A stretch of 64,000 nucleotides of DNA from a virus (Duplodnaviria > Caudoviricetes): IMG/VR virus record IMGVR_UViG_2894625894_000003, positions 64,001 to 128,000 of that record. One strand, 5' to 3'. This document shows, piece after piece, positions 4,190 to 47,638 of this stretch. Both the position numbers and the translations under genes were made by a program. The notes below the pieces were generated by a model that saw nothing but the letters and a program-made list of their open reading frames with translations, ran no database searches and was not told the origin of the DNA. Every line of letters begins with the position of its first letter. Position 1 is the stretch's first letter.

Positions 4190-7100
4190 TTAATGACAGT
4201 GACGGATAAGAGCCTCAACCCGTTGGGCCAGCTCTACCGGAGAGAGGGTTACGTGCGTAACGGGAACAGAATCGGTGCGGGAGAACAAGCCACTTGCCGG
4301 ATCCGTCAGCAGGGCTCTGTGTTCGGGGTTCAGCTGGGGATCCAGCTCGTTGATTTCCGCGACAGCCGCCGGGTCGGCTTTCAGCATTGGTCCCCCTGTA
4401 AAAATCAAGCTGGGATAAGGCTGGCCCGTCTGGGGATTGATCCCCCCTGAGACTCCGTGCGTTGCTAGGACAAACGTACGGATTTTTTCGGATAATCCGA
4501 GATCTTTCAGCTCATTAGCCAGTTCATTTTCCAGTTTTTCTACTGGAATATCTATAGCCACTTCTTCAGCTATTTGCTGGCTGGTTTCCGGCTTAGGGGG
4601 TAATGCAACAACGACCCGATCTTCCCCTAACGGATTGTGTGTATCCAATTCGGAATTTACCCGTAGACGAGTGGTCAGGTTATTGTACATAAACACGACC
4701 GGGGAGGCAATCCGAACCGACCGGCTCAAGATGGTCTCGTCGAGCTTTAAGCCCCCCTGCCGAACACTAATCTCACCCAGCTCTAGGGTCTGCTTGCGGC
4801 TGGAATCCTGCCCGGCATGAAACGTTCCATTAGCTGTTGCTGTCAGTAACCGGTTCAGTTCACCCGGTTTACCCACTTGGCTGGCCGATACGTATTTGTC
4901 GGAATAGTACTGCTCACCGTTGTGCTTATACGTCAACCGCAGCACCGGTTTATCCTTCACTGTATCCAGTACCAGGTGTAAGTCGCTGATACCGGTTTGG
5001 GGAGCCCCGGAGGCTGCCACAAAGTAATCGGTGAGGTTAATCAACTGGGGATTTTGGGACAGGGCCTGGGTCAGCTGTTCATCGGCATAGGGGGACTCCA
5101 CGGGCAGAAACAACAGCTTACCACCAGGGGTGGTCACCAGTACATGATAACCCAGGTGAGGCTTGCTGGTGGTGTTGTCCTGGAAATAGGCCTGGACGGC
5201 TTTTCGAATCCGGGTCCGGGGCTGCTGATCCAGGGGAGCTTCGACCAGTGTGGATAAAAACGAACCGTACGTATCGACGATCGGACTGCGGGCATCCCCC
5301 TGCAGATGCACCACCACCGGTCCCCGGATCGCTCCCCCGGGACTGTCAAGAACCAGATCGGTGTGGACCAGACTGCTGATGGGTTGCAGACCGCCGGGGC
5401 CAGGACGATCCAGGGGCATCAGCCCGTGGGGATTTTCACTGACTTCAAGCCGACTTAGCAGACTGTTCAGCATACCTTCCGTCAGGGGTTGGTTGACGGC
5501 CTGTTCGAGAAGTAGATTGGCAAGGGTAGATCGAAGGCTTTCGTACTGCCAGTGAATAGTCAGCCACTCTTGCAGGCTTTGCCGAAATCCTAACCAGGGC
5601 CGGCCCGTCTGAGGATCCGTTTCCAGGAGGGCATTATAGACATCCTGGGTGAGCAGCCCCGACTCAACCAGCTCATTAATTAATATGTTGGACTGCCCAA
5701 GCCGTGGTTGTAGCGGATGGCTGGCTGGTAATCGGGTTTGTAGAAACCCCCTGGCCCGTTCGGATAATTCCAGACTATGATCGAGTGGAATGGAGAGAAC
5801 CAGCTGATTATCCAGACGGGCCGTTAGTAACCGACCGGGGGTTCGACGGGCCAGGCCCGGATCCCCTTTGAGCTCGGAAGCCGTTCGAACCGGCGTCGGT
5901 GCCTGGATTGCCCAGGACACATTCGACAGGATTGCCCGTTTGTCGGCTACCGTATCAGCGGGTACCCGCCAGAGCCGGGCAAACTTGGCCTTGGCCATCA
6001 GCCAGGCCGACATACGGTCGAGTAAATCCCAGTTTTTAGTTTGAATAGCCCCGGCAATATTAGTAAACTTGGGATCACCCTGGCGACCCAGATTGGCATC
6101 CCACTCGTCCCAGAGAACCGATTCGAGGTATTTGGATGCTACCGATCCTTCATCGCCCCGTAGGGTACGGTCGAGGGGAGGGGTTGGGGCTTTGGGAGGT
6201 GTGGGTGGTTTAGCGGTGATGCCCTGCCGCTGCACCTGGACCAGGCCAGCCAGATACGGGGTAAGCACACCCTGATCCCAGAAAGTCAGTAGGAGTCGTT
6301 TAAAAGTATCGGAAGTTCCTGCCAGGGCTGCATCCAGTTCGGCAGAACGGCGTATTTTATTGTTAGCCAAATCGTTCAGCAGCGCCTCTACCCGGTCGGC
6401 AGATACCGGTCCCTGCAGGGCAGCGGTCGCCAGTTCAGCCAGATAATCTTTATCGAGTCCCAGTTTATCGGCCAGCGATTCAACCTGATCCGACATAATG
6501 GTTTTATTGGTAGCCGGTCTTTCCTCAACAGGTGCCGAAGTGGGTACTTCAACGTACGGATCTATGGATGAGCCGGCCTGATCCCGGATGGCCTCTGCCT
6601 GCAATTGGGCCTCGATCTGGTCTGAGTAGGCCTGATAGATCTCCTGCTGCCGGTCGCTAAGCTGACGGCCCGATTTAAGGGCCGCTGTCAACTCCCGTAG
6701 AATCGGTTCCTGACTGGCGGTGGGTAATTTCCCCGTATCGACAAACTGATCCCAAACCTGATTGACAATACCCCCTTCTTCAGCCAACGGATCACGAGTA
6801 GGCGTAGTGGGCATGGTTGTCACCGGTCCCGGACTGGGAGCAGCAACCGGCGCCGGTTGGGGTAATGGTAATTCAGCCTCATACTGCTCTTTGACCAGAG
6901 CGAAGATGGTAAAGGCATCCCGGTAATTTTCCTGGGCCGCTACGGTTTTTAGTTTCCGCTCCAGCTTGACATAGCCGGGATCCAGGCTCTGACGGGCAAT
7001 GATGCCATTATCCGCTTTGAGATCCGTTAGTAAATCGTCCAGAAACTGCTTCCGCTCCGTTTGTTGCCGGCGGTGTTCATCCCGCTGCCGGGTTAACTCG

Positions 7101-10100
7101 GTGGTGAGTTGAGTCCGGGTAGCTCCCTCATCTGCCTGGAATTGGGGCAGGTAGGTATCGATTAGATCCGAGAGGTCATTCCCCAGAACGGCCTTCCGTT
7201 CGGTTTCATTGGCGAATACCCCACTGATGTGATCATGCAGGGATTGCCGCTGAGCGGCCCGACGAGCCGTTTGCTGAGCCTTTTCCAACACTTCCTTCTG
7301 ACGCTGGAAATCCTCGGTCTGAGCCACAAAGTCGGTAAACCCCCGCTGACTCTTGAGTTTATCGGATCGGTCGGCCAGTGTTTTCAGAGCTGCTTCCAGG
7401 GCCTGGGCATCGTGGGCCTGCTGTAAAAGACCTTTGGTCTGCTCGTTATCCTCCAGATTGACATTAAACTCACTGGTGGCCAGTACCTGCCGGGCCGTCG
7501 AGACAGCTTTGTCGAGGGGAAAATCTGCTGATTCCAGTTCCTCGATCCAGGTCTGTTGCTGATCGATTTCCTTCAACCGGTCCTCAAAGCGGTCCAGCAA
7601 GTCGGCTTCCAGTTCCCGGGTTAGCCGATCGGTCTCCTCGGCGTGTTGTCTCACTTTAACTCCGTGACTGGCATCGGGATTTTCGGGGGCCACCGGCCGG
7701 GAAGCCTGTTGCTGGAGATCGAGGGCCTTTCGTTCCTGGTCGATGGTTTGCTCGATGGTTTTCTTTTCCCGGGCCAGTTCCACCCGGCGGCTACGCCAGC
7801 CTTCGGGGGTGATGAGCTGGGTAAGGTCTTCCATCGTCAACCCACTGCCACTACCACTGATAGCCTGTCCCAGCGACTGCCGGCGGTCCGTATACGCTTT
7901 CCTGATAAATTCAGCGTGGAGCATTTCATTGTAGTAATCCTCCCACTGACGATAGAGGGTCTGCTGCTCGGCACTGGCATCGGCCGTGAGCCGGTATGGA
8001 TTTTTGTACAAACCACTTAAGCGGTCCTGAGCTTTTTCCAGTGTCCTCAACGTCTGGTCCATACCCTGTACGAGCCCCGAGAGTTGCTCCTTACTGAAGC
8101 TGCCCGCGTCTCCCAATCCAAAGGCCTGAGTAAATTCTTCGGGCCGCTGGTTGATCGTCTCATTCCAGGTTTTGAACTGTTCCCGGATCAGATCCCCAGA
8201 CCCTTGTTTGACAAATGGTAGCAGGAAATGAAACTGAGCCGAGTTTTTCAGGTTCTGAAAAACGAACTGATCCGACAGAAGAGCGGCATCCTTTTGTAAG
8301 GTAGTCAGGTTCATAGAAGCCTGAGCCTGCTGAGCTTTCTGGTCGAGGCTATTGCCCAGACTCTGGCGTTCCAGCAACATCCGGGCAGCCTCCTGTACGG
8401 CCACCGGCGACAGGTTGAACTGCCGGGCAATCTCCTCGAAGCGGGCTTTCTGCTCAGGGCCGTTCAGGCGGTCGACGACGTACTTGGAAACACCCCCACC
8501 AATACGGCCTACGATCAAACCACCCAACCCTTCGGTCCACCCTTCCCGGGTTCCGAAGGCCTGCTGTAATCCATGCAGAGCCGCTTCCAGGGCCAGATCC
8601 GTATCCTTTTTGGATACACCTGACTGCTGTAGCTGGTAGTAGTGCTGGCTGCCCTCTGAGATGGCCTTTTGAAACTGTTCTTCCAGCATCTCCGACGAGT
8701 TGCCAATAAGCAGCTCTTTACCCTCGTTTCGAGCAAATGTAGCCACCTTACCGAAGGCCTTCTCGTACCACTTCTCATTGGCTCCGAAGGTAATGAGGGT
8801 AGGCTTGTTGGGGACCACGTCAAGCTGAGCCGGGTTGCCCGCTTTCTGTTGAAGTCGGTAGAGGTCATCGGCCTGGCCGAAAAGACGCTGAGCCTGGGGA
8901 AAGTTTTTCAGAATCGTCCCCAGCTGGAAGGTATTGGTTACCCCCAATAAGGCATGGTTTAGCAGAAAAGTCGCATTACCGGCCTGCTTGGCGGCTTCTC
9001 TAAACTTGGCTTTCTGGTCGGCATCCGGCTGAGTGCCGGTACGTTGCCGGTAATCTCTCAGGAGCTGCTGGTAAAGTTCCCGTTCGGCCTGGTAGCCTTC
9101 CAGGGATGCCTCCCCATTCGCTTGCAGAAAACTGTGCAACAGGGGTTTGGCCCCTACCCGTAATCCGATGGGGGTGTCGATGCCATTCCATACCGCCGAT
9201 GCCCCCAGTAGCAGCTTGTCTCCCCGACCGGCCTGCTTGGCTGCCTGATAGGCATCGTCGAGATAGGTCAACGACCGCTCCACGGTGGAGAGCCCTTTAG
9301 TGAGTTTGGCTAGCCGGTTGGTCCAGCTGGCAGCTAGTATCCCCAGGCTGGCCCCTTCGGTTAAGGGGGCCGCTGCTGAGAGCAACGCCGTCTCAATCAG
9401 TCCCGTTGTCAGACCACCAGCCAGAAAACCAAAGCTGCGGGCCAGCGACCCAAAGTCATTCCCACCCTCTCCCATAAAGGGAACCAGGTTCAGGTTGGGA
9501 TGCTGACGAGCCCAGTCACTCTGGAAGTTCTGATGGGACTCGTCGATCCGGGTCATCCAGTCATTGATATTCCGAAGGGCGGATCCTTCATCGCCCCGCA
9601 TGGATTCGGTAAAGGCATCCAGCCCGTGGATGTTACCAGCCAGCAGGTCTTTGGTAGTTTTGATTAACGTAGGCAAACTAACACTCCAGGCCCCGACGGT
9701 ACCCAGGGTGTTGACTCCTACCATGGTAGTGTCGTTCCAGAGCTGCCCCCAGAAACCCTGCCGTGCATTGGCATAGGCTTCATTGTCCCGGCCTCGTAGG
9801 AAATCAAAACCATTCTGGTGAAGCCGGTTGGTTTCCTCTACCTCGGCCTCACTCATTGGATCGGCCCGAACGGCTATCGCCTGCGCATTAACGGGGTCTT
9901 TCTGCCATTCGTCATTTTGACCCTTAACCCAATTCATCAACCCCTGAGTCATCAAATTACTCCGGTCGGTATCGGTCAGTACAGAAGGGGCCGCTGGATC
10001 TGATAGAGTAGGCTCATGCCAGCTGGGTGCGGGTTGTGGCTTGGGATCCTGCCAATCTTGGGCAGCGATGTCGGGTCCACCCGGTGGTTCCATGCCGGGA

Positions 10101-10171: not shown

Positions 10172-12840
10172 CGGGAAATATTTTGTAGTCGGAACTGATC
10201 AAAGTAGCGGTGTAGGTCAGCTACGGTCGGAATATAGTTAGGGTCCTTGCCCCCATAGAGGGCCTTTAGTTGTTGTTGGAGTTGGACAGCTAGAGCATCT
10301 AATCCGTTTCGACACCATCCGGTTGGATCAGATTGAAACTTATCAATACTTGTAAACTGGGTTGGGACCTGATAATCGTGGTCTCCAAATCGATAAGTAA
10401 GGCCGTACGAGCCATCTCTATTTTTTGTCGGAGAAACAGCTATTGCTAATCCCTGACTGGGAGTATAAAGATGCCGGGTATTACCAATCATTAAATTTCC
10501 CTGTCTATCCAATCTTTCTTTGAAAGGGTCGGGGGCCGCCTGGGCAGCTTTCAGAAGCCGCTGATCAACCATTCGGCCAAATTCCGAGGAGTTGCCGTAA
10601 TCCAGTCGAACCGTTTCTTCCAGGGCTTCTTTACCCGACCCTGTCTTGAGCCGGACATCGACCTGCCGGCTGCCGGGCAAAAACGTAACCCCCACCATTT
10701 CCACGGGCTGCCCTGAGCTCCACTTATCCAACAGTTCTTTCTGCTCGGAGCGGGTGTTACCCGCTGGGGCTATGCTGCCGTTACGAACCCGGTAGAGCAG
10801 GGCCTGGTGGATTTCATTGTCGGTTTTGAGGTAATCCCCTCCGGCAACCAGTCCGTGCTGAACATAGCCCCGTTTGGAAAGCTCCTCGCCCACCGCCTGC
10901 TGAGCGGCCAGGTGGCGGGCTTTAAGGGCATTATAGCGTTGCATGGGTTCATTGAAACTTTCATCCATACCCCGGAACAGAGCCGGGTTCTCAGCTATCT
11001 GTTTATCCATCATCGCCATAAACGCCCGGTCGTCGGCCGAAAGCGGATTACGGCGGTCCACGTCAGCCCGGATCTGTTTGATTTCCTCCCGCTGGAGTTT
11101 CAATAGAGCGGCCCGTTCGGTTAGATCCTGGTACTGACGACGTAATTCGGGATTGAGCCTTTTTAAGAATTCAGGGTTGGTTTTGCCGTGCTGAACGTAC
11201 TGGTTATAGTCGTTTTGCCAATCGACAATCAACCGGGCAATGGCTGGGGGTACGCCTTCAGCCTGGGTATTACGAATCTGTCCATCGCCGTAATAGTTGA
11301 CCTTCATTTCCCGGGCCATCTTATCGGCTAGGTCGGCATTACCCGCCCAGCGGACAATACCCACGGCCATATCCCGGACGGCAGCATCCTGGGTGCGGGC
11401 CTGGTTATCCAGATCCGCCTGCACTGATTCCAGGGTAGGATTGGTCAGAGCACCGGGTTGAACGGGCAGATCCACCACAAATAAATCGTTGCCTTCCCCG
11501 GCCCCATACGAGCCGTCTTTCTTTTTGGAGAGACCAACCTGGGCGGCCCGGGTGGCCAGCTCTCGTTCCTTCAACTCAAACTCCCGCTGTTTGTCCGAGC
11601 GGTCGGCCCCGAACTGAGTCTTTTTCCAAAACTCATCTGAGTTGAATTCGTCCTGCCAGCTCTGGCGTTCCCAGTCGAATTTCTGAACAGCCAGGTTATG
11701 GGCCTGAGCGGCAATGAAGGTTGGATCCGATCGGACTTTGCTGGCATCGAATACGTATCGACCCGCCAGATGATTGAGGTAGTTTTCGGTAAAGGAATTG
11801 ACCGCCATCGTTTCAGGATCCATTGAGGGCAGGGCCGTCAGGGTTCGCTGTTTGGCCTCGATCAGGTTTCGCTGATAAGTCAGGGCATTGTCCCGTTCGG
11901 CTGTCAGCTGGGCTTTCTCTTCGGCCGAGGAAGCTCGGGCCAGCCGGGCGGCCCATTCAGCCTGGTTGGCTTGCAGTACCTGGTTGTCGGTGGATAGCTG
12001 GGCCGTCAACTGCCGGCTGTATTCCGCTCGGTATGCATCGGGATTGGCCAGAATACCCTGCCCTTTATAACGGGCATCGACGCCAACCTGCCGGCTGAAT
12101 CGGGGATCCATAGCCAGTCGGGTGCGGGCGATCTGCTGAACCTGATCGTAGGTCAGCTTCCGGTTCTCGGTGATGTAGCCGTTCACGACGGTCGTATCGT
12201 TTGGTGCGGCCAGGATACGTTTGGTTACCGCATCGAGCTCCTTACTGAATTCGGCATCGTAGTTAAAATAGGGGTTGGCCGACTTATCCCCTCTGTAGGA
12301 GGCCGTGGGAGTTCGGTCATTGATATAGGAGTTGACCTGCCGTTGGAAATCCCATTCGTTCTGGGGGGCGTACTGCCCTCCGAATTTTTTGGGATCTTTC
12401 TGCCACTCTTTGAATTGATTCTGTACACCCCGGATTACGGCTGTATCGGCCATAGCCCCTACAATCCGTTCATCCTGGTCGAGGCTATTGGTAATCTGAC
12501 CAATCTGAGCCAGCACATTATGGTCGGCAAAGTTAGCGCCAGCCAGCTTATCGACCTGTGATTCCAGATCAGCTTTTCGCTGCAGGTAATAAGCCCGGTG
12601 TTCGGGGTGGAGAATATCCCGCTTCCCCATGTTCTGAAGCATGGTCTCAGCCTGCATCACACCCCGATCGAATTGTTGCTGGGAGTAAGCCAGCCCCTTA
12701 AAGGCCACTGAGGGGTCTAAGGGTGTAATATAGTCTGAAGGCTCCAGGGCCTTGGAAACGTACGAAACAGCCATATACTGGGAAACCGGTAGTAGAGGTA
12801 CCGGCGGGTAGGTAGGAGATGACGGTAAAATTACAGCCAT
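10168..12840 (-). CDS. Ejection/cargo protein (890 aa)
   Basis: Helical Q/A-rich ORF, ATGA-coupled to the 1993-aa gene. Confidence 0.7.
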   Translation of the reverse strand: MAVILPSSPTYPPVPLLPVSQYMAVSYVSKALEPSDYITPLDPSVAFKGLAYSQQQFDRGVMQAETMLQNMGKRDILHPEHRAYYLQRKADLESQVDKLAGANFADHNVLAQIGQITNSLDQDERIVGAMADTAVIRGVQNQFKEWQKDPKKFGGQYAPQNEWDFQRQVNSYINDRTPTASYRGDKSANPYFNYDAEFSKELDAVTKRILAAPNDTTVVNGYITENRKLTYDQVQQIARTRLAMDPRFSRQVGVDARYKGQGILANPDAYRAEYSRQLTAQLSTDNQVLQANQAEWAARLARASSAEEKAQLTAERDNALTYQRNLIEAKQRTLTALPSMDPETMAVNSFTENYLNHLAGRYVFDASKVRSDPTFIAAQAHNLAVQKFDWERQSWQDEFNSDEFWKKTQFGADRSDKQREFELKERELATRAAQVGLSKKKDGSYGAGEGNDLFVVDLPVQPGALTNPTLESVQADLDNQARTQDAAVRDMAVGIVRWAGNADLADKMAREMKVNYYGDGQIRNTQAEGVPPAIARLIVDWQNDYNQYVQHGKTNPEFLKRLNPELRRQYQDLTERAALLKLQREEIKQIRADVDRRNPLSADDRAFMAMMDKQIAENPALFRGMDESFNEPMQRYNALKARHLAAQQAVGEELSKRGYVQHGLVAGGDYLKTDNEIHQALLYRVRNGSIAPAGNTRSEQKELLDKWSSGQPVEMVGVTFLPGSRQVDVRLKTGSGKEALEETVRLDYGNSSEFGRMVDQRLLKAAQAAPDPFKERLDRQGNLMIGNTRHLYTPSQGLAIAVSPTKNRDGSYGLTYRFGDHDYQVPTQFTSIDKFQSDPTGWCRNGLDALAVQLQQQLKALYGGKDPNYIPTVADLHRYFDQFRLQNISR

Positions 12841-12895
12841 TTTCTAGCACCTCAAACAGTTTACCCACTATTACCGATCTTTACTACCGTATATT

Positions 12896-12911
12896 AGGTA
12901 TAACTATTTTT
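12896..12911 (-). promoter_or_regulatory. Candidate late promoter motif AAAAAnnGTTATACCT
   Basis: 14/16 identical to 59570-59585; both copies lie upstream of minus-strand late operons. Confidence 0.4.
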
Positions 12912-13025
12912 TCCAGTTTATTTGGTTGTTTTCATTTTTTAGCCAATATTTCGAACCTATAGCCAGTAACAGCCCGTCTCAACTGCCTGTGCTGGACAAA
13001 AGACCCTTTATATTTATTTACACCC

Positions 13026-13976
13026 TTGGTAGCGACCAATACAAATCCTCCCTCGCAAAGCCCCAAAGGCTTACACAAAGATGCCCAGCAACGGCTGGAC
13101 AATATACTGACCCGACTCCGAAGCCTGCTGGGCGATGGTCAGTGGCATAAGATCCCCCGGGCCGATTTTGCCAAAACCTACGGAACCGATCACCGGGTAT
13201 TGTCCGTACTGGTGGACTCAAAAGCCCTGGAACAGAAAAAAGAAGGTAATGTACTCTACTACCGTCGTCGTTCGGGACTCGCCCAGATGCAGGTAACTGT
13301 GCTGCATTCCTTGATGGCGGCCCGGCGGGCTAAGGACAAAGCAATCCAGGTTGGTACGACATACCATACGACGACGGCAACAGACATGACCTCGGCAGGA
13401 ACCCCAACGGCCCCCGAGCAGATGATCACCCACAGACAGGCTGGTTCGTTAAACATGGCAATTCTCCAGCGATTTAGTTTGCAGACCGGTTTGTCAGGAG
13501 CTGCCCTTAAACAGGCCTATCTGAATTTACCGCTGGAAGATGCCCTTGAAAAACTTCCTCAAGAACGTCCCGAAATCAAACTAAATCCACCGGAAACGAT
13601 TATTCGGCTTTCCAATCCAATGCTGGAAGCAGCTAACGAGGTCCCTGTGGTCCCGCTGCCGGTTGTGGCCCCTACTCCCAAGTTAACCCCGGTATCACAT
13701 GCGTTACCAAGCCATCCACTATGCGGGGAGATTCGCCGGTTGTTGGGTCAACAGGAAACATTACGTGATCTCAATAAGCAACGGCAGGAGCTGGACAAAC
13801 AGATTGCTGCTCAGCAGGAACTTATCCAAAAATCCATAGAAGGGTTTTATTATGTCAACAGGCGGCTGGAGCACCACCGGTTTGTCTATCAGGACACCAA
13901 CCACGGGTCGTTTCTGGTGACAACGTCCCCGGATAAAACCCTGGATGTACGACGCATCCTGGTGGAGGTAGCTTAA
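13026..13976 (+). CDS. Putative DNA-binding protein (winged-helix-like N-terminus, coiled-coil C-terminus)
   Basis: 316-aa ORF (TTG start uncertain); segment RADFAKTYG...LVDSKALEQKKEGNVLYYR; followed by a terminator. Confidence 0.5.
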   Translation: MVATNTNPPSQSPKGLHKDAQQRLDNILTRLRSLLGDGQWHKIPRADFAKTYGTDHRVLSVLVDSKALEQKKEGNVLYYRRRSGLAQMQVTVLHSLMAARRAKDKAIQVGTTYHTTTATDMTSAGTPTAPEQMITHRQAGSLNMAILQRFSLQTGLSGAALKQAYLNLPLEDALEKLPQERPEIKLNPPETIIRLSNPMLEAANEVPVVPLPVVAPTPKLTPVSHALPSHPLCGEIRRLLGQQETLRDLNKQRQELDKQIAAQQELIQKSIEGFYYVNRRLEHHRFVYQDTNHGSFLVTTSPDKTLDVRRILVEVA

Positions 13977-13996
13977 CGAGTAACCACCTTATAATC

Positions 13997-14030
13997 AAAA
14001 GCCCTCTGGAGATACCGGAGGGCTTTTTGT
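13997..14030 (+). terminator. Intrinsic terminator
   Basis: AAAAGCCCTCTGG-agata-CCGGAGGGCTTTTTGT. Confidence 0.8.
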
Positions 14031-14073
14031 TTATCCGGAATATTTAATTATTTTGCCCAAATTAAACCGATTT

Positions 14074-14541
14074 ATGAATTTTCCTGTTTACCCCGTGGAT
14101 GCGTCGGAAGATCGTATGCTCTTCCGATTTTATAGTGAGGGGCCAAAGGGAATAATTGAAAAACGGGTACAGTTTGAAAAATATCCCTGGAAAACCTGGT
14201 ACAATTTAATACTTGGTGATGTTGATGATAAAGGCCAATTGAAATTTGAAGTGAGCGGTAATGAGGACATGAAAGTTATAATGGCCACAGTGGCTTATAT
14301 AATTGACAAGTTCTTATCAAAATACCCAGACCGTGTCGTTATTTTACAAGGGACTGACACTCGGCGTATACTCCTTTATGGACGCATTATCAGAGAACAC
14401 ATGCTGGACTTTTTTCCAGGTTATACATTCCACGGATTGATTGACGCTTCCACCCTTCTTCATCCAATTCTCCTTCACCCAAAAGATCCCAATATCGCTT
14501 TTTGTGAAATGTTTACTGTTCAGAAAACGTTTAACAAGTAG
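14074..14541 (+). CDS. DUF6934-like protein, copy 1
   Basis: FRFYSEGPKGIIEKRVQF...NLILGD...SGNEDMKVIMATVA...R.LLY matches the recalled Bacteroidota DUF6934 pattern; ATG 14074 preferred by alignment with copy 2. Confidence 0.7.
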   Translation: MNFPVYPVDASEDRMLFRFYSEGPKGIIEKRVQFEKYPWKTWYNLILGDVDDKGQLKFEVSGNEDMKVIMATVAYIIDKFLSKYPDRVVILQGTDTRRILLYGRIIREHMLDFFPGYTFHGLIDASTLLHPILLHPKDPNIAFCEMFTVQKTFNK

Positions 14542-14543
14542 AA

Positions 14544-15095
14544 ATGGCCACAAACTCAAAACATAATATAAAAGGGAAAAGACCAGTAGTAGGTGGGCAG
14601 ATCAATACGGTGGACGATTTAAAACCATTTCCAGCTGATCATCCAGTTATTGCTGCAAAAATGGAAAGGGTTACCCGGATTATAACCAATATGCCCTCTC
14701 AAATAACTCACCTTCCCTTTCCTTCTAATAAGACATATGGAAGAGTATATCCTGGCCGAGAGGCCCGTATACAGAGCCATCCACACGATCTTACTGAGGA
14801 GTTTTACTACGTCGCAGTTCCGGCTAACCGGGACTATTCAACATGGGCTGCAAGTTTCTTTAAAAATTGGGCAGCCGTAAATGACTATAAATCAGCCGCC
14901 TTTGTAGCCTATTCAAAAGCAATGATTATTCGGACAGTGCATACCGGCAAGATTATTACTACTGTTCTTGAAGAAGCACCAGATTTAGACAAGTTTGAGA
15001 CTATTTCACCATTTGTGGCCCCTTCCCCTCAAATTTCGATAAAAATTGAAGAGGTGCTCGCCATTCTCAAACAGCTTCGAGGGAAAATTTTATAA
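14544..15095 (+). CDS. DUF6934 partner protein 1 (antitoxin-like N-terminus plus extra domain)
   Basis: Starts 2 nt after DUF6934; motif LKPFPADHPVIAAK shared with 15733..16077. Confidence 0.6.
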   Translation: MATNSKHNIKGKRPVVGGQINTVDDLKPFPADHPVIAAKMERVTRIITNMPSQITHLPFPSNKTYGRVYPGREARIQSHPHDLTEEFYYVAVPANRDYSTWAASFFKNWAAVNDYKSAAFVAYSKAMIIRTVHTGKIITTVLEEAPDLDKFETISPFVAPSPQISIKIEEVLAILKQLRGKIL

Positions 15096-15118
15096 GGCTG
15101 TGACAGTACCAATGAAAA

Positions 15119-15163
15119 AATTACCCATTCCGGAACGTTACTGGAATGGGTAATTAGTTTTTT
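15119..15163 (+). terminator. Intrinsic terminator
   Basis: AATTACCCATTCCGG-aacgtta-CTGGAATGGGTAATT followed by a T-tract. Confidence 0.75.
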
Positions 15164-15208
15164 GGGAAACCGGAATGTTTGATTATTTTTCCCCAATCAA
15201 ACTGAATT

Positions 15209-15721
15209 ATGGATTTACCCGTTTATTATGTAAAGGAGTCCTCGGATCATACCTATTTCGAATTTGATAGTGTTGGAAAAAGGGGGACAATCCGCAAGTA
15301 TGTTCAGTTTAAACAATATGTGGACAAACAAGGTGATCTTTGGAACGATCATTTTTACTTAACCCTAGGGGATATCGTTGATAAAAAACATATAGTAAAT
15401 CGTATATCGGATAATGGGGATATAATAATGGTGATGGCAACTGTTACCAGAATTATTCAGTATTACTTGACGACTTATCCAGATAGAATAGTAGTTTTCG
15501 AAGGCATCCCGGATCCGGAAACTAATATTAATCAAAGGAACCACCTCTATAGTAGAATCCTCTACCGACACATTGAAGAATTTAATTTTCTTAAAATAAT
15601 TGCTCGAATTGGGGGTGAACAAACTGGCAAATACTTTGAGTTAACCCCTTTTATGACCTCAACTTTTGACATCCCCGAGTACGAAATATTCTTTATATCC
15701 AACAAAACGGCAATTCGATAA
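15209..15721 (+). CDS. DUF6934-like protein, copy 2
   Basis: YFEFDSVGKRGTIRKYVQF...LTLGD...SDNGDIIMVMATV...RNHLY; paralog of copy 1. Confidence 0.7.
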   Translation: MDLPVYYVKESSDHTYFEFDSVGKRGTIRKYVQFKQYVDKQGDLWNDHFYLTLGDIVDKKHIVNRISDNGDIIMVMATVTRIIQYYLTTYPDRIVVFEGIPDPETNINQRNHLYSRILYRHIEEFNFLKIIARIGGEQTGKYFELTPFMTSTFDIPEYEIFFISNKTAIR

Positions 15722-15732
15722 AATACGGAACG

Positions 15733-16077
15733 ATGGCTAAGCATACAACCTATAATGCACCGGATGATTCAGTATTCTCAATTGATCCGAATCTCAAACC
15801 GTTACCGGATGATCATCCAGTCATTATCCAGAAACAAGAAGAATACCATATACTGGTAGGAAATATAGAACCAAACCTTAGCAAGGTTAGAAGTGACATT
15901 CAAGTAATAAACGAAAAAGATTTTAGAAAAGATACAGCCATATGGTTAAATCAAGACCGTCCAGATAACAAACGTAGCTTTGGAAGACTCAAACTAGTAA
16001 TAGGTCTTATGGAGGAAACATCTGTAGGCCTTGTTCAACTACTTAAATTACTATTTCACAACCGCTTAAAACCTTAA
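15733..16077 (+). CDS. DUF6934 partner protein 2
   Basis: IDPNLKPLPDDHPVIIQK motif; directly follows copy 2. Confidence 0.6.
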   Translation: MAKHTTYNAPDDSVFSIDPNLKPLPDDHPVIIQKQEEYHILVGNIEPNLSKVRSDIQVINEKDFRKDTAIWLNQDRPDNKRSFGRLKLVIGLMEETSVGLVQLLKLLFHNRLKP

Positions 16078-16174
16078 TACCAGTCTATTCTGATTACCTA
16101 ACTTTAACATAGAACTCCGAATAAGTTTCAATATAATCTCAATAAGACAATTACTAATAGATTAAATTTCATTT

Positions 16175-16205
16175 AAAGGCCTCCTGAACCCCAGGGGGCT
16201 TTTTT
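16175..16205 (+). terminator. Intrinsic terminator
   Basis: AAAGGCCTCCTG-aaccc-CAGGGGGCTTTTTT. Confidence 0.75.
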
Positions 16206-16288
16206 ATTGCCATGCCAGTTGGATACCGACTGGATCTCCGATTACCAGAGATACTCTGGATGTCATTCATTTCCTTCACAATACATCC

Positions 16289-16684
16289 ATGAAAACGGTA
16301 CTTCAACACGCTTACCAAAATCGTTCAACTACGTATACAAACACTTCAACCAACAGTCGGTACCTTGAACTACTTGAAGAACTAGTCCGGATGGAGAAAG
16401 CCCGGATGAAGCTTAATGCGGACTGCACCGAGTATCTGATCTCAACAATTGGACTTGATTTGGGTATAGCGGCTAAAACACTGAATCTGATGCTACATAA
16501 AGCTGGAGTCCTCCGAATGACTCGGGCCGGCTGGGTGTTAACCGGTGATTACCAGGATGCGGGTTATGCCTTCTATAAGATACCGCCGGTCCAAACCAAA
16601 TCAGCTAAGACTCGGCATACCATCATGTGGACAGAAAAAGGTCGGGCACTGGTTACCAGCATTGCCCGGCAGACACGCCGATAA
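16289..16684 (+). CDS. Phage antirepressor KilA-C (ANT) domain protein
   Basis: ISTIGLDLGIAAKTLNLMLHKAGV...GWVL...Y...GY...WTEKGRALV. Confidence 0.75.
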   Translation: MKTVLQHAYQNRSTTYTNTSTNSRYLELLEELVRMEKARMKLNADCTEYLISTIGLDLGIAAKTLNLMLHKAGVLRMTRAGWVLTGDYQDAGYAFYKIPPVQTKSAKTRHTIMWTEKGRALVTSIARQTRR

Positions 16685-16687
16685 ATA

Positions 16688-16728
16688 AAATTACCCTACT
16701 CTGGTATACAGCCGGAGTAGGGTAATTT
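16688..16728 (+). terminator. Long hairpin/terminator
   Basis: AAATTACCCTACTCTGG...CCGGAGTAGGGTAATTT. Confidence 0.7.
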
Positions 16729-16730
16729 GT

Positions 16731-16738
16731 TATGTTTG
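16731..16738 (+). promoter_or_regulatory. Bacteroidota -7 box TATGTTTG (would give a near-leaderless mRNA)
   Basis: Exact TAnnTTTG, 4 nt before ATG 16743. Confidence 0.4.
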
Positions 16739-16742
16739 GAGG

Positions 16743-16937
16743 ATGAGAAATATACCCGCACCCTCCTATGGATTTTTTCTATTATTGGTATCCGGCATAT
16801 TTTTAATTATTGAATGTATTAGAAAGCCCAGAGTTCTTTCGGATCTCATCGAAATAGTTTTGTTTTTCGTTGGAATACCGGTTGCATTTATACTATTTTC
16901 CTGGGTCAGTGATTTCTTTAAATCTGACAAAAAATGA
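16743..16937 (+). CDS. Small two-TM membrane protein
   Basis: Two hydrophobic segments; ATGA overlap with the next gene. Confidence 0.6.
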   Translation: MRNIPAPSYGFFLLLVSGIFLIIECIRKPRVLSDLIEIVLFFVGIPVAFILFSWVSDFFKSDKK

Positions 16938-17383
16938 GATTACCCCTCCTCCCTTTTTTATTTTTATGCTTGGGGCCGGTCCCTTTAACCTACGGTCAGG
17001 CATCATATTTGTCTAAACCACTAACCTCAACTCATTACATCTCACCAGTAAGTCCGGTTGTGACATATGGAAGTCTCTATGCTCGCCAGGCGCAATATGA
17101 TGAAGGTAGAAATAAGGTTCAACAGAAAATTAACACGATCTTAGAAGCAATTGAGGACTTGTCTATTACCAAACCTAATGGGGCAAAAGCATCTCATTTA
17201 ACCCTACAGGTCTTTATAGACAGGATAAATGAAAAGGATCCAGATTATAGTAATCCAGATGTAATTAAGCCGTGGCTGGACTATCTAACCCAAGTACGAG
17301 AGTTGGTCCGTAATTATCATCGGAAGCCTGATTTGACAAATCAGGAATTAGCCGAAGTGTATAAACTAATTGAGGCCCAGTAA
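16934..17383 (+). CDS. Exported protein with signal peptide
   Basis: MRLPLLPFLFLCLGPVPLTYG-Q signal followed by a helical domain. Confidence 0.6.
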   Translation: MRLPLLPFLFLCLGPVPLTYGQASYLSKPLTSTHYISPVSPVVTYGSLYARQAQYDEGRNKVQQKINTILEAIEDLSITKPNGAKASHLTLQVFIDRINEKDPDYSNPDVIKPWLDYLTQVRELVRNYHRKPDLTNQELAEVYKLIEAQ

Positions 17384-17398
17384 ACCAGGCCTCAATTA
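17367..17398. terminator. Hairpin between convergent genes (bidirectional terminator)
   Basis: TAATTGAGGCC...GGCCTCAATTA. Confidence 0.6.
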
Positions 17399-19432
17399 TT
17401 AATCGATAAGAATCAAATCCACTGAACCACCCTGCTGAAACGTGCCAGGTCTTGCCAATTTCCCTGTCTGTTGTAGTAGTTGAAGATTTTGCAGTAACTG
17501 CTTCTGCTGGCTCAGTACGTCCTGGGTATACTCTACCCCAGTTACGTTACCCAGTCCGTCGGTTTTGGTCTTGGTTTTACCATTAGCCGAAGCCATACCA
17601 CCCAAACCGGGCATGCTACCGTTGAGAATAACCTTCTCCCCTTTCTTATGCACGATTCGGCCATCGGGTAAAACCTCGAAGTTTTTGCCGAAGACACTCT
17701 GGAACGCATTGTAGTTCCGCTCCTCCTGAGCCGCTTTCTGCCGTTTTTCATCCATGGACTTAAGGGCTCCAAAGACCTGTTGCCGCTGGGCCTCGTCAGC
17801 TTGCTTGTTCTGCTGATCGAACAGCTGCAGGTATTGATTGTTCTGTAGCTGAGCCTGATACTGAGCTTGTTCATTGGCCGTCAGTTCCTGGACTTCCAAC
17901 TGATTATTTTGTTGTTGGACCTGGGCCAGATAATCATTGACTCCCCGGAAATAATCCGCCTGGGCCGCTACCTGCCGGGCATTGCCCAGGGTAGAGCCAT
18001 CGTTGTTCCGACTGAGCTGGTAGGCTGCTTCTCCCAGGGCCTGCATTCCTAATCGTTCATTCACCCTCGGTAAACGTACTGTCGGAGCATCTACCTGCAT
18101 AAGCTGATTCGGAGTCTTCTGGGCAGCATCAGCCAGCATAACCATATCCGTCAGCAGACTCATGCCATCCAACTCGTAGGGATTCGACGAAGTCTGAGCC
18201 GTCTGACCCCCTCCTACCGAAGCCGGCGCCTGCGGATTATCGGTCCCTAGTTGTCGCAGAAACGTAGCCGGAATCCGGTTAGGATCTAAGGCATTCCGAC
18301 GGATTAGTTCCAGGGGTTCCGGTAGCGGATTGATGGGTACAATGCCCAATCCATCACTATCTACGCGAGTCCAATCCGGTTGCTGTACCGGACTGGAGGG
18401 AGCCATCAGGTTGCTCAGGGCTGGTTTAGTGCCCGGTTTTCTTTGGGCAGAACCCGCTCGAACGGGATCGGGAATTTCACCTCCCAGCAGGGGATTGCCC
18501 ATTTCATCAATGGGCAAGGGTTCCCCTGTCAGCAGATGTTGCTGTAGAGCGGGTGGGGTCTTATTATAGAGCAGGCTATTGGGCAGTGGCCGGGTGGGAT
18601 TGAGATCCCCCATCAACTCGGCCAGGCGGCCCTGTAGCTGTTTGGTTTCCGGATCGTGGGCGATACGTTGGGAAAGAGCCACAAAGTCACTCAGCTCTTC
18701 CGTGTTCAGTAGATCAGGATTTTGATTCCAGCGATTCAGGTAGTCGTTATACTTAACCCGTTGCCGTCCATTGAGCCCCTGAGTGGTTGGTGCTGGGCCA
18801 CCCGTCCGGGCTACAGGCAGGGTCAGCAGGTCCGCAGGAGTCAATTCCACAAACTCCCCTCCTTGTTGGGCCGTTGGCATCTTATCACCCAAAAACTGTA
18901 GTTGCTTCTTTCCTTCCTGAAGCTGGAAGGCTGCCCCAAACAAATATTCGTCCGTGGGCAGAGCACCGGCCTGAGCCATAATCACCTCCAGGGAGGCTGT
19001 CCGGTAGGGTTGGCCGGGACCACCCTGCTCCCCTTCCGTCGCCTTCAGGAGTTTTTCGGCCCGCTCGTCCCGGGCATCCCGCATTTTCTCGAATAGCCGG
19101 CTGGGGGACATCGACACGGATGTATCGAGCTGGATTCCTAGGGACAGTGCTACCTGACGGGCTTCACCGGGCTTGATCTTGATAACGGCATCGTCCGGGT
19201 TGTCGGCCCGCTTACCCCGGTTGATCTGTTCCTGGGAAGCGGACAGAATCCGAAAAGCATCCGGCACCACGACCCCACCCCGGCCTTTGGGAGCGGGCTG
19301 GGCGGCTCCGTCAATCAGCAGAATACCATCATCGTGCGAGGGGGCCTGGGGGTCCACTTGACTAAGACCACCGTCCAGCCGCTGGTAATGCTCTCCCCTT
19401 TCCGCAATAATGGGTTTAGTGGCTAGTTTCAT
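17399..19432 (-). CDS. Cargo/ejection protein (677 aa)
   Basis: crAss-type N-terminal AERGE...PSHDDG motif, QQGG motifs, Q-rich coiled coil. Confidence 0.7.
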   Translation of the reverse strand: MKLATKPIIAERGEHYQRLDGGLSQVDPQAPSHDDGILLIDGAAQPAPKGRGGVVVPDAFRILSASQEQINRGKRADNPDDAVIKIKPGEARQVALSLGIQLDTSVSMSPSRLFEKMRDARDERAEKLLKATEGEQGGPGQPYRTASLEVIMAQAGALPTDEYLFGAAFQLQEGKKQLQFLGDKMPTAQQGGEFVELTPADLLTLPVARTGGPAPTTQGLNGRQRVKYNDYLNRWNQNPDLLNTEELSDFVALSQRIAHDPETKQLQGRLAELMGDLNPTRPLPNSLLYNKTPPALQQHLLTGEPLPIDEMGNPLLGGEIPDPVRAGSAQRKPGTKPALSNLMAPSSPVQQPDWTRVDSDGLGIVPINPLPEPLELIRRNALDPNRIPATFLRQLGTDNPQAPASVGGGQTAQTSSNPYELDGMSLLTDMVMLADAAQKTPNQLMQVDAPTVRLPRVNERLGMQALGEAAYQLSRNNDGSTLGNARQVAAQADYFRGVNDYLAQVQQQNNQLEVQELTANEQAQYQAQLQNNQYLQLFDQQNKQADEAQRQQVFGALKSMDEKRQKAAQEERNYNAFQSVFGKNFEVLPDGRIVHKKGEKVILNGSMPGLGGMASANGKTKTKTDGLGNVTGVEYTQDVLSQQKQLLQNLQLLQQTGKLARPGTFQQGGSVDLILID

Positions 19433-19441
19433 ACGCTAAGG

Positions 19442-20191
19442 TTAAAGAATGGGAATCAGCTCTACCTGTCCTCCTTGTTGGAACAGGGATCGGGCATTGT
19501 TCATCCGGGCTTGTTCGATCCGGGCGGGCCGCTCATAACTATGGGCGAAGGCATAGGCGGCCTCTTCGGGTGTTTTCGTAGCCCCCACCCGCTTGAGCAT
19601 CCGGGCCGACTCGCCGGGTTCGGAGAGAATATAGTCCAGCTGGAAATTCGTATCGTAGGGGTCGACACCGGCCTGGCGGGCGGCATTGACGACACCGGCC
19701 CACCGATCCGGATGCCACTGAGCCAGGCCCCTGGCTTTGCCACCGTCTCCTACAGCCCGGGTGTTGAGACTGGATTCCTGCATGAGATTACCCACAATAC
19801 CGGCCGCTACGTGTGGGGCCAGTCCGTGCTTTTTCTGTAGATACTGGTAGGCCTGCTGGGCCGTTGTGGAAGGTGCCGATGTAGACATGGATGGAGCGGG
19901 CGTGGAAGAAGACACATGACCGGCATACCCACTAAAGGGGGTAGCCAGGGAGGGCCTGGGGTCGTAGCGACGGCGGGCCTGGGGATTGTAGTAGGACCGG
20001 ATTTGATCCAGCAGCGTGAACTCCGATTCGTCAGCCGCCAGGGGCTCATCATCGGCATCCTCTTGGGCACCATCAGCATAATCCGGTACTGGAGAAGACT
20101 CCTCGGCGGCAGCCGGGGGCAGAAGAGATGGCTGCGGGTCCGCCCCCTCTTCGGGGACGGCCAGCAACTCATCCAACCAGGAAAGATCCAT
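19442..20191 (-). CDS. Virion-associated lysozyme (Phage_lysozyme2-like)
   Basis: AAGIVGNLMQESSLN...GLAQW...QLDYI...YERP. Confidence 0.85.
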   Translation of the reverse strand: MDLSWLDELLAVPEEGADPQPSLLPPAAAEESSPVPDYADGAQEDADDEPLAADESEFTLLDQIRSYYNPQARRRYDPRPSLATPFSGYAGHVSSSTPAPSMSTSAPSTTAQQAYQYLQKKHGLAPHVAAGIVGNLMQESSLNTRAVGDGGKARGLAQWHPDRWAGVVNAARQAGVDPYDTNFQLDYILSEPGESARMLKRVGATKTPEEAAYAFAHSYERPARIEQARMNNARSLFQQGGQVELIPIL

Positions 20192-45940: not shown

Positions 45941-47638
45941 TTAATCGTAGTCGAGTGGGTCTTCGCGTTCGATCAGGATTACGCGACTTGGGTCTTTAAG
46001 CCATACTTCACCCGCCCAGAACAATTTGATTTTGAAGCCAAAGAAGTCACCCGAGCTGATGTGGGCGTTCTTACCGGCACCGGCATACTGCATGAGGAAA
46101 TCCGGGCAGTAGTCACCGATCTGGAAGACCGTATGGGTGTCTGCGTAGTTCTTCGGCTTGAGCATAACGATGTTCTTGCCGTTGTTGAAACTATCTACCT
46201 GACCCTGTGGAATGGCATTGGAGAAGGTAGGATCGGTTAGATCCTTCACTAAAATAGAGTACGAGCTGTTCGGATAACGGCCGTAGAAGGTCGTCTCCGA
46301 TTTGGTGCCCTCAAAGTCAAGCGCTGGGTTGTGCTCGATCATTACCTCACCGGCTTCGGGGAAGTTATAGGACACGAATCGGAACCCACCGTAACGCAGG
46401 TTCATCGAATCACCCGACAACAGACCCTTCAGGGCTGGGTGGTCAGCTAGTACTGTGAATGGGTTGTCCTTACGGTACTCCTGGGCAAAGGCTTTCTGAA
46501 TTTCGATGAGAGCCCCCATGCCCATCTCGAATTTCACCCGGCGCATGTGCATCGGCAGATCCGAACGCCCGTAGAACATGGTACCCACCACGTCTTTCAG
46601 GATGTTGAGCAGCTGGCGGGTATCCGAATACTGTCGGTACATCCCCGTTTTCAGCTGTGGATAGAGACCCATACCCACGCGGGCCATCGTACCCCGGCCG
46701 TCGTAGATCACCCCACCGGTATTCCACATGCAGTGCATTTCCTGCATACGGGCCTGTTCGCGGTAGAGCATCTCGATGATGGTTGGCATCCAGCGGCCAG
46801 ACCCTTTAACCTGCTTGGAGCGGTCGTAGCGGTCCTTGTTGTTTGGATCGTAGGGATCCCCCATCGTCTCAAACATGTAGACAATAGAAGCCAGGTGTGG
46901 GTTGCAGTACTGGTTCAACAGGCTCTTGTCCATTCCTTCCGGAATTTTCTTGAGCTCGATCATATCGGCATTACCCGTCATTACGTGCTCCAGGCCCTGC
47001 AGGGTCTCCCCCGTCTGGAACATGAGCGTCTCGTAACCGTCCGAGTCATTGCTGATGGCCGAATTCTCGGTTGACCATTCGGTTTTGATATGGCCGATTT
47101 TAAACCATTCCACGTCCGGCTGCAGGAACTTGCGAGGTACGTACGCCTTGGGATCGGTGGACTTCACCCGCAGACAGTACTTCCAGCCCGAACTATACGG
47201 CTCCACTTCCTCGTCGAAGACCACGTAACACTGGACACCGATTCGGCGGTTGTAGGTCAGAATGTCCCCTTTCTGGTAGCGGTTGGTGTCGAGTACCGTA
47301 TAAAACTTCTCCCGGCCAATACCAACGCGGTCCTGGTCGCCGGCAATGTCTTCCAGTACTTTGGGCAGGCTGGTTTTGTAGGGAACCGTGTAGGTCAGCT
47401 GCTCCCCCATCGTGTTGGTATACTGAACGTTACCGCTCAGCTCCGTCATCGAGATGATAGGGGTATTGACAATCTGGTAGTGATTCCAGAGTTTAAGCAG
47501 ACCCAAATACTGCTGTTGAGAACCAAGCATCTGGGTAACCGTATTGGCTTCCGTGTGTTTAGTGCCCAAATTCAGCTGGGTTCGGCCCATGGCTACGCCA
47601 TGCTGCAGGCCGTTCACTGGTGATCCAGGTTGAATCAT
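45941..47638 (-). CDS. Major capsid protein
   Basis: 565 aa; G.GLYPQL, GFRFVSY, IEHNPALD, VWLKDPSR are crAss MCP-type motifs. Confidence 0.9.
   Translation of the reverse strand: MIQPGSPVNGLQHGVAMGRTQLNLGTKHTEANTVTQMLGSQQQYLGLLKLWNHYQIVNTPIISMTELSGNVQYTNTMGEQLTYTVPYKTSLPKVLEDIAGDQDRVGIGREKFYTVLDTNRYQKGDILTYNRRIGVQCYVVFDEEVEPYSSGWKYCLRVKSTDPKAYVPRKFLQPDVEWFKIGHIKTEWSTENSAISNDSDGYETLMFQTGETLQGLEHVMTGNADMIELKKIPEGMDKSLLNQYCNPHLASIVYMFETMGDPYDPNNKDRYDRSKQVKGSGRWMPTIIEMLYREQARMQEMHCMWNTGGVIYDGRGTMARVGMGLYPQLKTGMYRQYSDTRQLLNILKDVVGTMFYGRSDLPMHMRRVKFEMGMGALIEIQKAFAQEYRKDNPFTVLADHPALKGLLSGDSMNLRYGGFRFVSYNFPEAGEVMIEHNPALDFEGTKSETTFYGRYPNSSYSILVKDLTDPTFSNAIPQGQVDSFNNGKNIVMLKPKNYADTHTVFQIGDYCPDFLMQYAGAGKNAHISSGDFFGFKIKLFWAGEVWLKDPSRVILIEREDPLDYD

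Follow-up and report, generated by a model that had tools for sequence, protein, structure and literature searches.

The stretch of DNA analysed here (the window) comprises 64,000 nt of a tailed-phage genome, positions 64,001 to 128,000 of IMG/VR record IMGVR_UViG_2894625894_000003, and all coordinates without a prefix are positions in it. At 14035-16077 the window carries two tandem gene pairs, in each of which a gene encoding a DUF6934 protein (A1, A2) is closely followed by a gene encoding a partner protein (B1, B2); the locus lies inside a prophage of a Spirosoma-like bacterium with a 7.5-Mb genome. Judging from gene order and sequence across the phylum, DUF6934 and a small partner form a conserved, previously undescribed two-gene cassette. 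Our favoured reading, which we hold tentatively, is that of a toxin-antitoxin (TA)-like conflict cassette carried twice as a prophage moron. We favour it because the two genes are tightly paired and spread patchily in multiple copies, because partners occur as orphans, A decays more often than B and the two are fused in a natural protein, and because A1 has a GNAT-like predicted fold with the toxin AtaT among its structural matches and the prophage copies lie in low-GC DNA on the strand opposite to their surroundings.

Anatomy of the two gene pairs

The two modules and their boundaries comprise the following features.

13997-14027, + strand: terminator hairpin of the upstream island gene, with a 13-bp stem and adjoining T run; delimits module 1 on the 5' side
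14035-14073, + strand: leader 1
14074-14541, + strand: A1, DUF6934 protein of 155 aa (PF22028, E 3.1e-29)
14544-15095, + strand: B1, partner of 183 aa, with LKPFPADHPVI in the N-terminal ~60 aa and residues ~61-183 forming an extension
15119-15155, + strand: module 1 terminator hairpin, an inverted repeat with a 15-bp stem followed by a T run
15170-15208, + strand: leader 2, paralogue of leader 1
15209-15721, + strand: A2, DUF6934 protein of 170 aa (PF22028, E 9.4e-23)
15733-16077, + strand: B2, partner of 114 aa, with LKPLPDDHPVI near the N-terminus
16181-16198, + strand: terminator-like hairpin after module 2, with a T run

A1 and A2 belong to the Pfam family DUF6934 (PF22028), with scores of 102.3 and 81.3 bits against a gathering threshold of 27. 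They are 38-40% identical to each other and align across the whole domain, including the invariant Phe-x-Ser, Lys, Asp, Asn-x-Asp, Gly, and Tyr. The ATG at 14074 (MNFPVY...) is most likely the start of A1, since its relatives all begin MN.P.Y, and is favoured over the TTG at 14053 that opens the longest open reading frame (ORF). No other DUF6934 gene was found in the host genome, where the places of A1 and A2 are the only matches. In a quick IQ-TREE phylogeny of 88 DUF6934 sequences, the two are sisters (SH-aLRT 93) on the longest branches of the tree (3.85 and 1.98 changes per site, respectively), which is consistent with the gene having duplicated in tandem and then evolved fast in the phage, a pattern that long-branch attraction could mimic.

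Each partner gene follows its A gene on the same strand after a short gap (2 nt between A1 and B1, 11 nt between A2 and B2), and both partner ORFs stop shortly before their terminators. The two leaders are identical at 32 of 39 positions (82%), compared with 52% identity over the aligned A codons, and the leader motif occurs at only these two sites in the 7.5-Mb genome, against a chance expectation of 0 matches. Its layout is TTTG, a 19-nt spacer, and a TAnnTTTG-like box approximately 18 nt upstream of the ATG. The Bacteroidetes -33/-7 promoter consensus is TTTG, about 19 nt, and TAnnTTTG, and by this resemblance each leader would be a host-type (Bacteroidota-type) promoter. No flanking repeats around the modules or the surrounding island were found in the window.

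B1 and B2 align with each other over only ~31 residues around the LKPFPADHPVI/LKPLPDDHPVI motif (BLASTP E 7e-6), and their C-terminal parts are unrelated. At the DNA level, the 35-nt stretch encoding the motif is 80% identical between the two genes, compared with about 52% in the surrounding DNA. An earlier note, made from the letters of this DNA, had described two paralogous DUF6934 genes each with a close partner, a leader and terminator for each pair, and partners that share a short N-terminal motif and have unrelated C-termini, all of which is borne out by these comparisons.

Beyond the family assignment, database searches with the locus proteins returned little. A word-based homologue search with A1 recovered only A1 and A2, and A1 found no match by tblastn in 50,697 phage records and none in IMG/VR, where a profile of canonical A proteins matched one provirus only. 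Longer, fused forms of A were sought but none came up, a negative result of little weight. A pantothenate-kinase match (14 bits) and a DUF6956 match (E 0.034) were set aside as noise.

The cassette and its partners across Bacteroidota

Neither Pfam nor the literature that we found records a function or a conserved partner gene for DUF6934. We compared two sets of loci, an initial 20 and then 80 further loci from across the phylum that were fetched by the A protein alone. In the first set, an ORF of 51-61 aa follows every DUF6934 gene. In the second, the gene-neighbourhood survey that the earlier note had proposed, a profile made from the small ORFs of the first set finds the small partner (51-60 aa) directly downstream of DUF6934 on the same strand at 77 of 80 loci, the other three being a contig end, an in-frame stop, and a locus too divergent to call. 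The median gap between A and B is 10 nt (99 pairs, including nine 4-nt overlaps), and both gaps in the window lie well below the ~30 nt taken as the upper limit for the cassette. A canonical pair is L004:1492-1935 with L004:1950-2111. The partner has an approximate consensus of M-K-T-x-x-x-L-N-x-x-K-x-P-I-V-x-I-D-x-S-L-x-K-Y-x-D-K-x-L-F-P-E-K-L-x-K-A-N-x-x-L-K-T-x-K-L-P. It corresponds to no Pfam family, with no Pfam domain detected in eight canonical partners, B1, or B2, and ESM Atlas holds only unnamed look-alike clusters. We found no literature on the partner, and "DUF6934" itself appears merely as a gene label in one paper's table.

The cassette is patchily distributed, at 0-8 copies per genome. 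Within the host genus it occurs in 19 of 36 other species, with 1-4 copies, while an even draw of 400 Bacteroidota genomes contains 17 carriers from 13 of 180 genera, one of them with eight copies, of which two are in tandem. In the main clade of the A tree, sequences from Spirosomataceae, Chitinophagaceae, Flavobacteriaceae, and Hymenobacteraceae are interspersed, and this mixing of families and orders indicates that the cassette has moved horizontally. The cassette genes are also lower in GC than their surroundings. Clustering of the 1241 flanking genes gives 1071 clusters, and among the 150 genes immediately next to the cassette each family is represented three times at most; the survey yielded no conserved third gene and no defence-island signal, and PIN-domain genes, transposases, and tyrosine integrases lie near the cassette only sporadically. 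Taken together, the tight coupling, patchiness, and mobility seen in these genomes are the usual marks of a small selfish or conflict module, such as a TA pair, and differ from those of a resident of defence islands.

The two genes can also be found separated, broken, or joined. At four or more independent loci (at least L017/L072, L078, L088, and L089) A is broken and B intact, and the reverse was seen only at L046, an asymmetry that is suggestive only. Orphan B genes with no remnant of A occur at L055 and L081. Conversely, P0007 is a natural A-B fusion of 174 aa in a single ORF, on a 1081-bp contig and with eight member sequences.

B1 and B2 are the two longest of about 100 partners. Other extended partners are limited to that of L041 (149 aa) and a few database proteins, such as P0004 and P0008, and the extensions are mutually unrelated. 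The earlier note had envisaged a swappable sensor domain, an idea that does not extend to the family, in which the usual partner has only 51-60 aa and long extensions are exceptional; as far as these sequences go, a conserved peptide with a variable domain is true of this phage and not a family rule. An exhaustive phmmer search with B1 over 1.84 billion representatives returned nothing except B1 itself. A first partner profile recognised B1 and B2, but it had been trained on them, and the match vanishes once they are excluded. A divergent subgroup of Spirosoma partners has a common motif, (D/E/N)-H-P-(I/L/V) followed by K-x-E/A, and the register in which B1 and B2 align with canonical partners agrees with the prediction from gene position. 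B1 and B2 are positional equivalents of the canonical partner and are probably homologous to it, though not demonstrably so. In a fold prediction for B1 based on a 90-sequence alignment, only residues ~31-50 are modelled with confidence, as a single helix (34-49; predicted local distance difference test, pLDDT, 92-96), and everything else, the C-terminal extension included, has low to modest confidence.

Several individual loci deserve mention. Tandem DUF6934 copies approximately 1-1.6 kb apart are present at G457:C3:31332-32723, in the genome with eight copies, and at G055:C30:8823-10880, so cassette arrays are not unique to this prophage. At L055:13264-14505, the orphan partner (14329-14505, minus strand) lies ~400 bp from a PIN-domain gene (13503-13907) that forms a VapBC-like pair with a small upstream ORF. 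In a Chitinophagaceae metagenome-assembled genome, a 270-bp direct repeat (L031:9658-9926 and 10605-10873; 98% identical, spacing 947 bp) flanks the cassette and may be a trace of its duplication or movement; the repeat contains a 71-aa gene and its hairpin, and in P0004 and P0005 the partner is fused in frame to the 71-aa gene. In a second provirus (L141:7182-8626; IMG/VR UViG_2636415943_000003), a DUF6934 gene (8001-8471) and a partner-like ORF of 50 aa (8474-8626) come right after an XRE-type helix-turn-helix regulator (~244-264 aa), at a site that in prophages often houses lysogen-expressed genes.

Predicted fold of A and the prophage island

The AlphaFold2 model of A1, built from a 19-sequence alignment, is confident (pLDDT 90, predicted template modelling score 0.85). 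It comprises four N-terminal strands, a helix-strand-helix segment, and two further strands, without the alpha1-alpha2 arm of GNATs. In an exhaustive structural comparison, nearly all of the 50 best matches have the GNAT fold (Z 5.2-6.2) and include RimI/RimJ-type enzymes, the toxin AtaT (Z 6.2, root-mean-square deviation 3.9 Å over 110 residues), phage Mu Mom, and AcrVA5. The Foldseek comparison suggested by the earlier note was run on A1: matches in the Protein Data Bank (PDB) are weak (E 7e-3 or worse, template modelling (TM) score about 0.4), whereas predicted viral structures (BFVD) give 20 matches with E below 1e-3 and TM scores of 0.5-0.65. Many of the latter are domains of large phage proteins labelled ParB/Srx, zeta toxin, deaminase, or Alt-like ADP-ribosyltransferase. 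The (near-)invariant residues of the family are an Asn-x-Asp before helix 1 and a Gly...Arg...Tyr set at the junction of strand 5 and helix 2; in A1 they include Asn63, Asp65, Arg98, and Tyr102. Mapped by the order of secondary-structure elements only, these positions would correspond to the GNAT cofactor site and catalytic tyrosine. On this model A has a GNAT shape minus the alpha1-alpha2 arm and could be either an enzyme or a non-enzymatic protein. A profile search of PDB entries returned nothing beyond a sub-threshold similarity to an OmpA-like beta-alpha-beta unit (E 0.06), which was treated as chance.

The locus belongs to a + strand island (~12841-17398) with a GC content of 37-41%, compared with about 55% in its surroundings. 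The island breaks into a minus-strand block of late structural genes of tailed-phage type, within a large chromosomal contig, that includes tail proteins, several giant proteins, and the following genes.

45941-47638, minus strand: major head protein
49069-51834, minus strand: portal
54413-56560, minus strand: terminase large subunit

A related prophage in the same genus (G067) encodes homologues of the 677-aa and 890-aa proteins that flank the island, and at the equivalent junction (L140 = G067:C9:158000-176000, 6649-10067) it has three different genes whose GC is normal and which mostly run in the direction of the structural genes, with no DUF6934 gene among them. The lack of the island at the same junction in G067 indicates that it is a lineage-specific insertion of moron type at a variable junction. 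The flanking 677-aa and 890-aa proteins (one of them at 17399-19432) have no PHROG match. A 249-aa protein encoded nearby (19442-20191) resembles tape-measure PHROGs over their lysozyme-like region (phrog_9570, E 1e-26).

Other genes of the island include a KilAC/ANT-domain gene (16289-16684; PF03374, 31 bits), a gene for a 64-aa membrane protein with two hydrophobic segments (16743-16937) that overlaps the start of the next gene, and that next gene (16934-17383), encoding a 149-aa exported protein with a signal-peptide-like N-terminus. These genes are typical moron cargo and possibly have a role in superinfection exclusion.

Possible roles and relation to known systems

If the pairs are TA-like, the GNAT-shaped A protein of ~150 aa would be the effector, with its conserved residues where GNATs hold their cofactor, and B would be co-translated from the same short operon and restrain A by binding it. 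Binding would involve the conserved helix of B and the extended segment that precedes it (LKPxPxDHPVI-x-x-K in the phage copies). Transcription of each prophage-borne pair would start in the lysogen at a host-type promoter of its own, without dependence on the late structural operon, and the pair could make the prophage more stable or act against rival phages by abortion or exclusion. The C-terminal extensions, which are unrelated between B1 and B2, would then be lineage-specific add-ons.

A considerable number of results weigh against a toxin-antitoxin role. Concerning A, a Z of about 6 lies in the range that the comparison method itself calls common, and an hhalign comparison of the 88 DUF6934 sequences with 14 PF00583 proteins of the same genome gives a probability of 0.2%, the sole aligned piece being RTRLY against the GNAT a..fY helix. 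Pfam finds no GNAT domain in A1 or A2, and the acetyl-CoA-binding motif A (Q/RxxGxG/A) was not found in DUF6934, in which the consensus of the loop before alpha1 is S-N-N-G-D. Concerning the partners, B is basic (pI about 10) and A acidic (about 5), and B has no recognisable DNA-binding domain, both of which are unlike most type II antitoxin/toxin pairs. A partner profile built without B1 and B2 fails to recognise them (hmmsearch E 4-7), and hhalign relates them weakly to all partners (probability 0.85%) and to the divergent Spirosoma subgroup (22%, E 1e-3). None of the four proteins has a match in PADLOC-DB 2.0 at E values up to 1, and PHROGs and NCBIfam hold nothing for them. Furthermore, the immediate neighbours of the cassette are mostly housekeeping or metabolic genes rather than defence islands, and the decay asymmetry of at least 4:1 is close to the 3:1 expected from gene lengths. 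Of the earlier note's proposal of an uncharacterised TA or defence system, what stands is a conserved module with TA-like genomic behaviour; the lack of PADLOC matches and the housekeeping neighbours lend no support to the defence role.

Some of these observations would suit a non-toxic, two-subunit accessory factor, in which B would be the obligate small subunit of A, and A a diverged enzyme of GNAT-like kind or a pseudo-enzyme that binds a ligand, a reading that we regard as rather unlikely but well worth keeping in view. Small molecules, antibiotics, or host proteins might then be modified by A, with B perhaps supplying the missing alpha1-alpha2 helices, and the prophage copies would represent lysogenic conversion. 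The GNAT topology of A without its alpha1-alpha2 arm and the prediction that in B an extended segment leads into one or two helices agree with this division of labour, strict pairing and the natural fusion fit a heteromer equally well, and the metabolic and housekeeping neighbours and a basic B without the DNA-binding domain of typical antitoxins point the same way. Yet the patchiness, up to eight copies, order-to-order transfer, and frequent pseudogenes are unusual for a plain metabolic enzyme, orphan B genes occur without A, and A shows neither an acetyl-CoA motif nor profile similarity to GNATs. Alternatively, the phage copies might be a diverged host cassette used in counter-defence or mimicry, neutralising DUF6934-type modules or another host system through LKPxPxDHPVI, with the C-terminal domains adding activities. 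Chromosomal DUF6934 cassettes in half of the species of the genus, the position of the phage copies on the longest branches of the tree, as expected under an arms race, the constancy of motif and leader while the remainder diverges, and the recurrence of a DUF6934-like fold in large phage conflict proteins are all compatible with this idea. It is nonetheless improbable, because the present host has no other DUF6934 gene, which also tells against the immunity to host copies suggested in the earlier note; moreover, a pure antidote would need B only, yet A is intact in both copies, and host-type promoters and terminators of their own would resemble those of lysogen-expressed morons, not early anti-defence genes.

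Two further explanations concern the locus more narrowly. The partners or their extensions might be non-functional, that is, read-through or decaying ORFs beside two DUF6934 genes, as the absence of any relative of B1, the low confidence at which most of B1 is modelled, and the failure of the independent B-family profile might suggest. This is quite improbable considering that B1 keeps a 183-codon frame in 40%-GC DNA (estimated chance ~3e-4 over the 123-codon extension alone), that the motif-coding stretch stands out from its surroundings in identity, that both ORFs end just ahead of terminators, and that nearly all relatives have a small ORF at this position. Least probable of all, and very unlikely, is a virion-associated cargo or adaptor role, in which the common peptide of the partners docks variable cargo onto A1 and A2. 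The island does split a run of giant putative ejection or cargo proteins, and the BFVD matches include Alt-like ADP-ribosyltransferases of the kind packaged in T4-like virions. But the pairs lie on the opposite strand in low-GC DNA, each with its own promoter-like leader and terminator, and are not co-oriented with the late operon; the cassette is mostly chromosomal and far from phage genes; the T4 genome has no sequence match to PF22028, so that the link to Alt exists only at the level of fold; and the related prophage G067 does without these genes.

With this work a bare DUF becomes a defined 0.65-kb two-gene unit with ~100 natural examples. Knowledge of TA and small defence modules is far sparser for Bacteroidota than for Proteobacteria and Firmicutes. 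Should A prove toxic and B its neutraliser, the cassette would be a new TA family in which a GNAT-like effector is countered by a minimal peptide, and the locus would illustrate how prophage morons diversify a module of this kind. Should A prove non-toxic, the strict pairing would still point to a two-subunit protein common in soil and freshwater Bacteroidota.

Compared with other members of PF22028, A1 and A2 are the most divergent sampled, are prophage-borne, and are paired with unusually long partners. RimI-like GNAT domains have been described beside ADP-ribosyltransferase domains in injected phage polyvalent proteins (Iyer et al., 2017, PMC5512222). A1 matches domains of such polyvalent and Alt-like proteins (Foldseek E 1e-5 to 1e-3, TM 0.5-0.65). 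DUF6934 differs from these in standing alone, free of fusion to other effectors, in having a small partner of its own, and in being mostly chromosomal. A parallel is offered by DUF6169 (PF19666), a structural neighbour of A1 (TM 0.65) that is also patchy and multi-copy, being present in 25 of 36 genomes of the genus with 1-6 copies, and that is also coupled to a helical ORF of 60-69 aa. The small ORF always precedes DUF6169 and overlaps its start (L123-L134; for example, L123:1110-1319 with L123:1309-1803), so the gene order is reversed relative to DUF6934. The host genome itself has a DUF6169 locus (G000:C8:60993-61244). Sequence similarity between the two families is marginal (one match, E 2e-4 in a tiny database), and we found no literature on the DUF6169 module. 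It is conceivable, if doubtful, that DUF6934 with its ~53-aa helical partner, perhaps together with the reversed DUF6169 pair, represents a new Bacteroidota-wide class of conflict modules, in which a stripped-down GNAT-fold effector is restrained or completed by a short peptide; prophage copies would use that peptide as a docking handle for new C-terminal domains, giving a modular phage-borne TA or defence system with exchangeable sensor and effector parts.

In their organisation the two pairs are like prophage morons such as lambda rexAB, which are self-contained promoter-gene-terminator units of deviant GC that run against the direction of the surrounding operon, but they have no sequence or fold relation to known moron-encoded systems. 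Like type II TA systems generally, the cassette consists of two small, co-oriented, tightly spaced genes with a patchy, multi-copy, and horizontally mobile distribution. The likeness extends to the GNAT-fold systems AtaT-AtaR, TacT-TacA, KacT-KacA, and ItaT-ItaR, where mobile DNA likewise carries a small operon of two genes, the larger product having a GNAT-type fold. In these systems, an upstream gene encodes the antitoxin, a ribbon-helix-helix (DUF1778) DNA-binding protein, and the toxin can be recognised as an acetyl-CoA-binding GNAT. By contrast, the DUF6934 partner is encoded downstream, has ~53 aa, no known domain, and one confidently predicted helix (in B1), and A lacks profile similarity to GNATs. 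Overall, should the cassette work in the manner of any known system, it would come closest to the GNAT-toxin type II systems (AtaRT, TacAT, KacAT), yet it is not a member of them.

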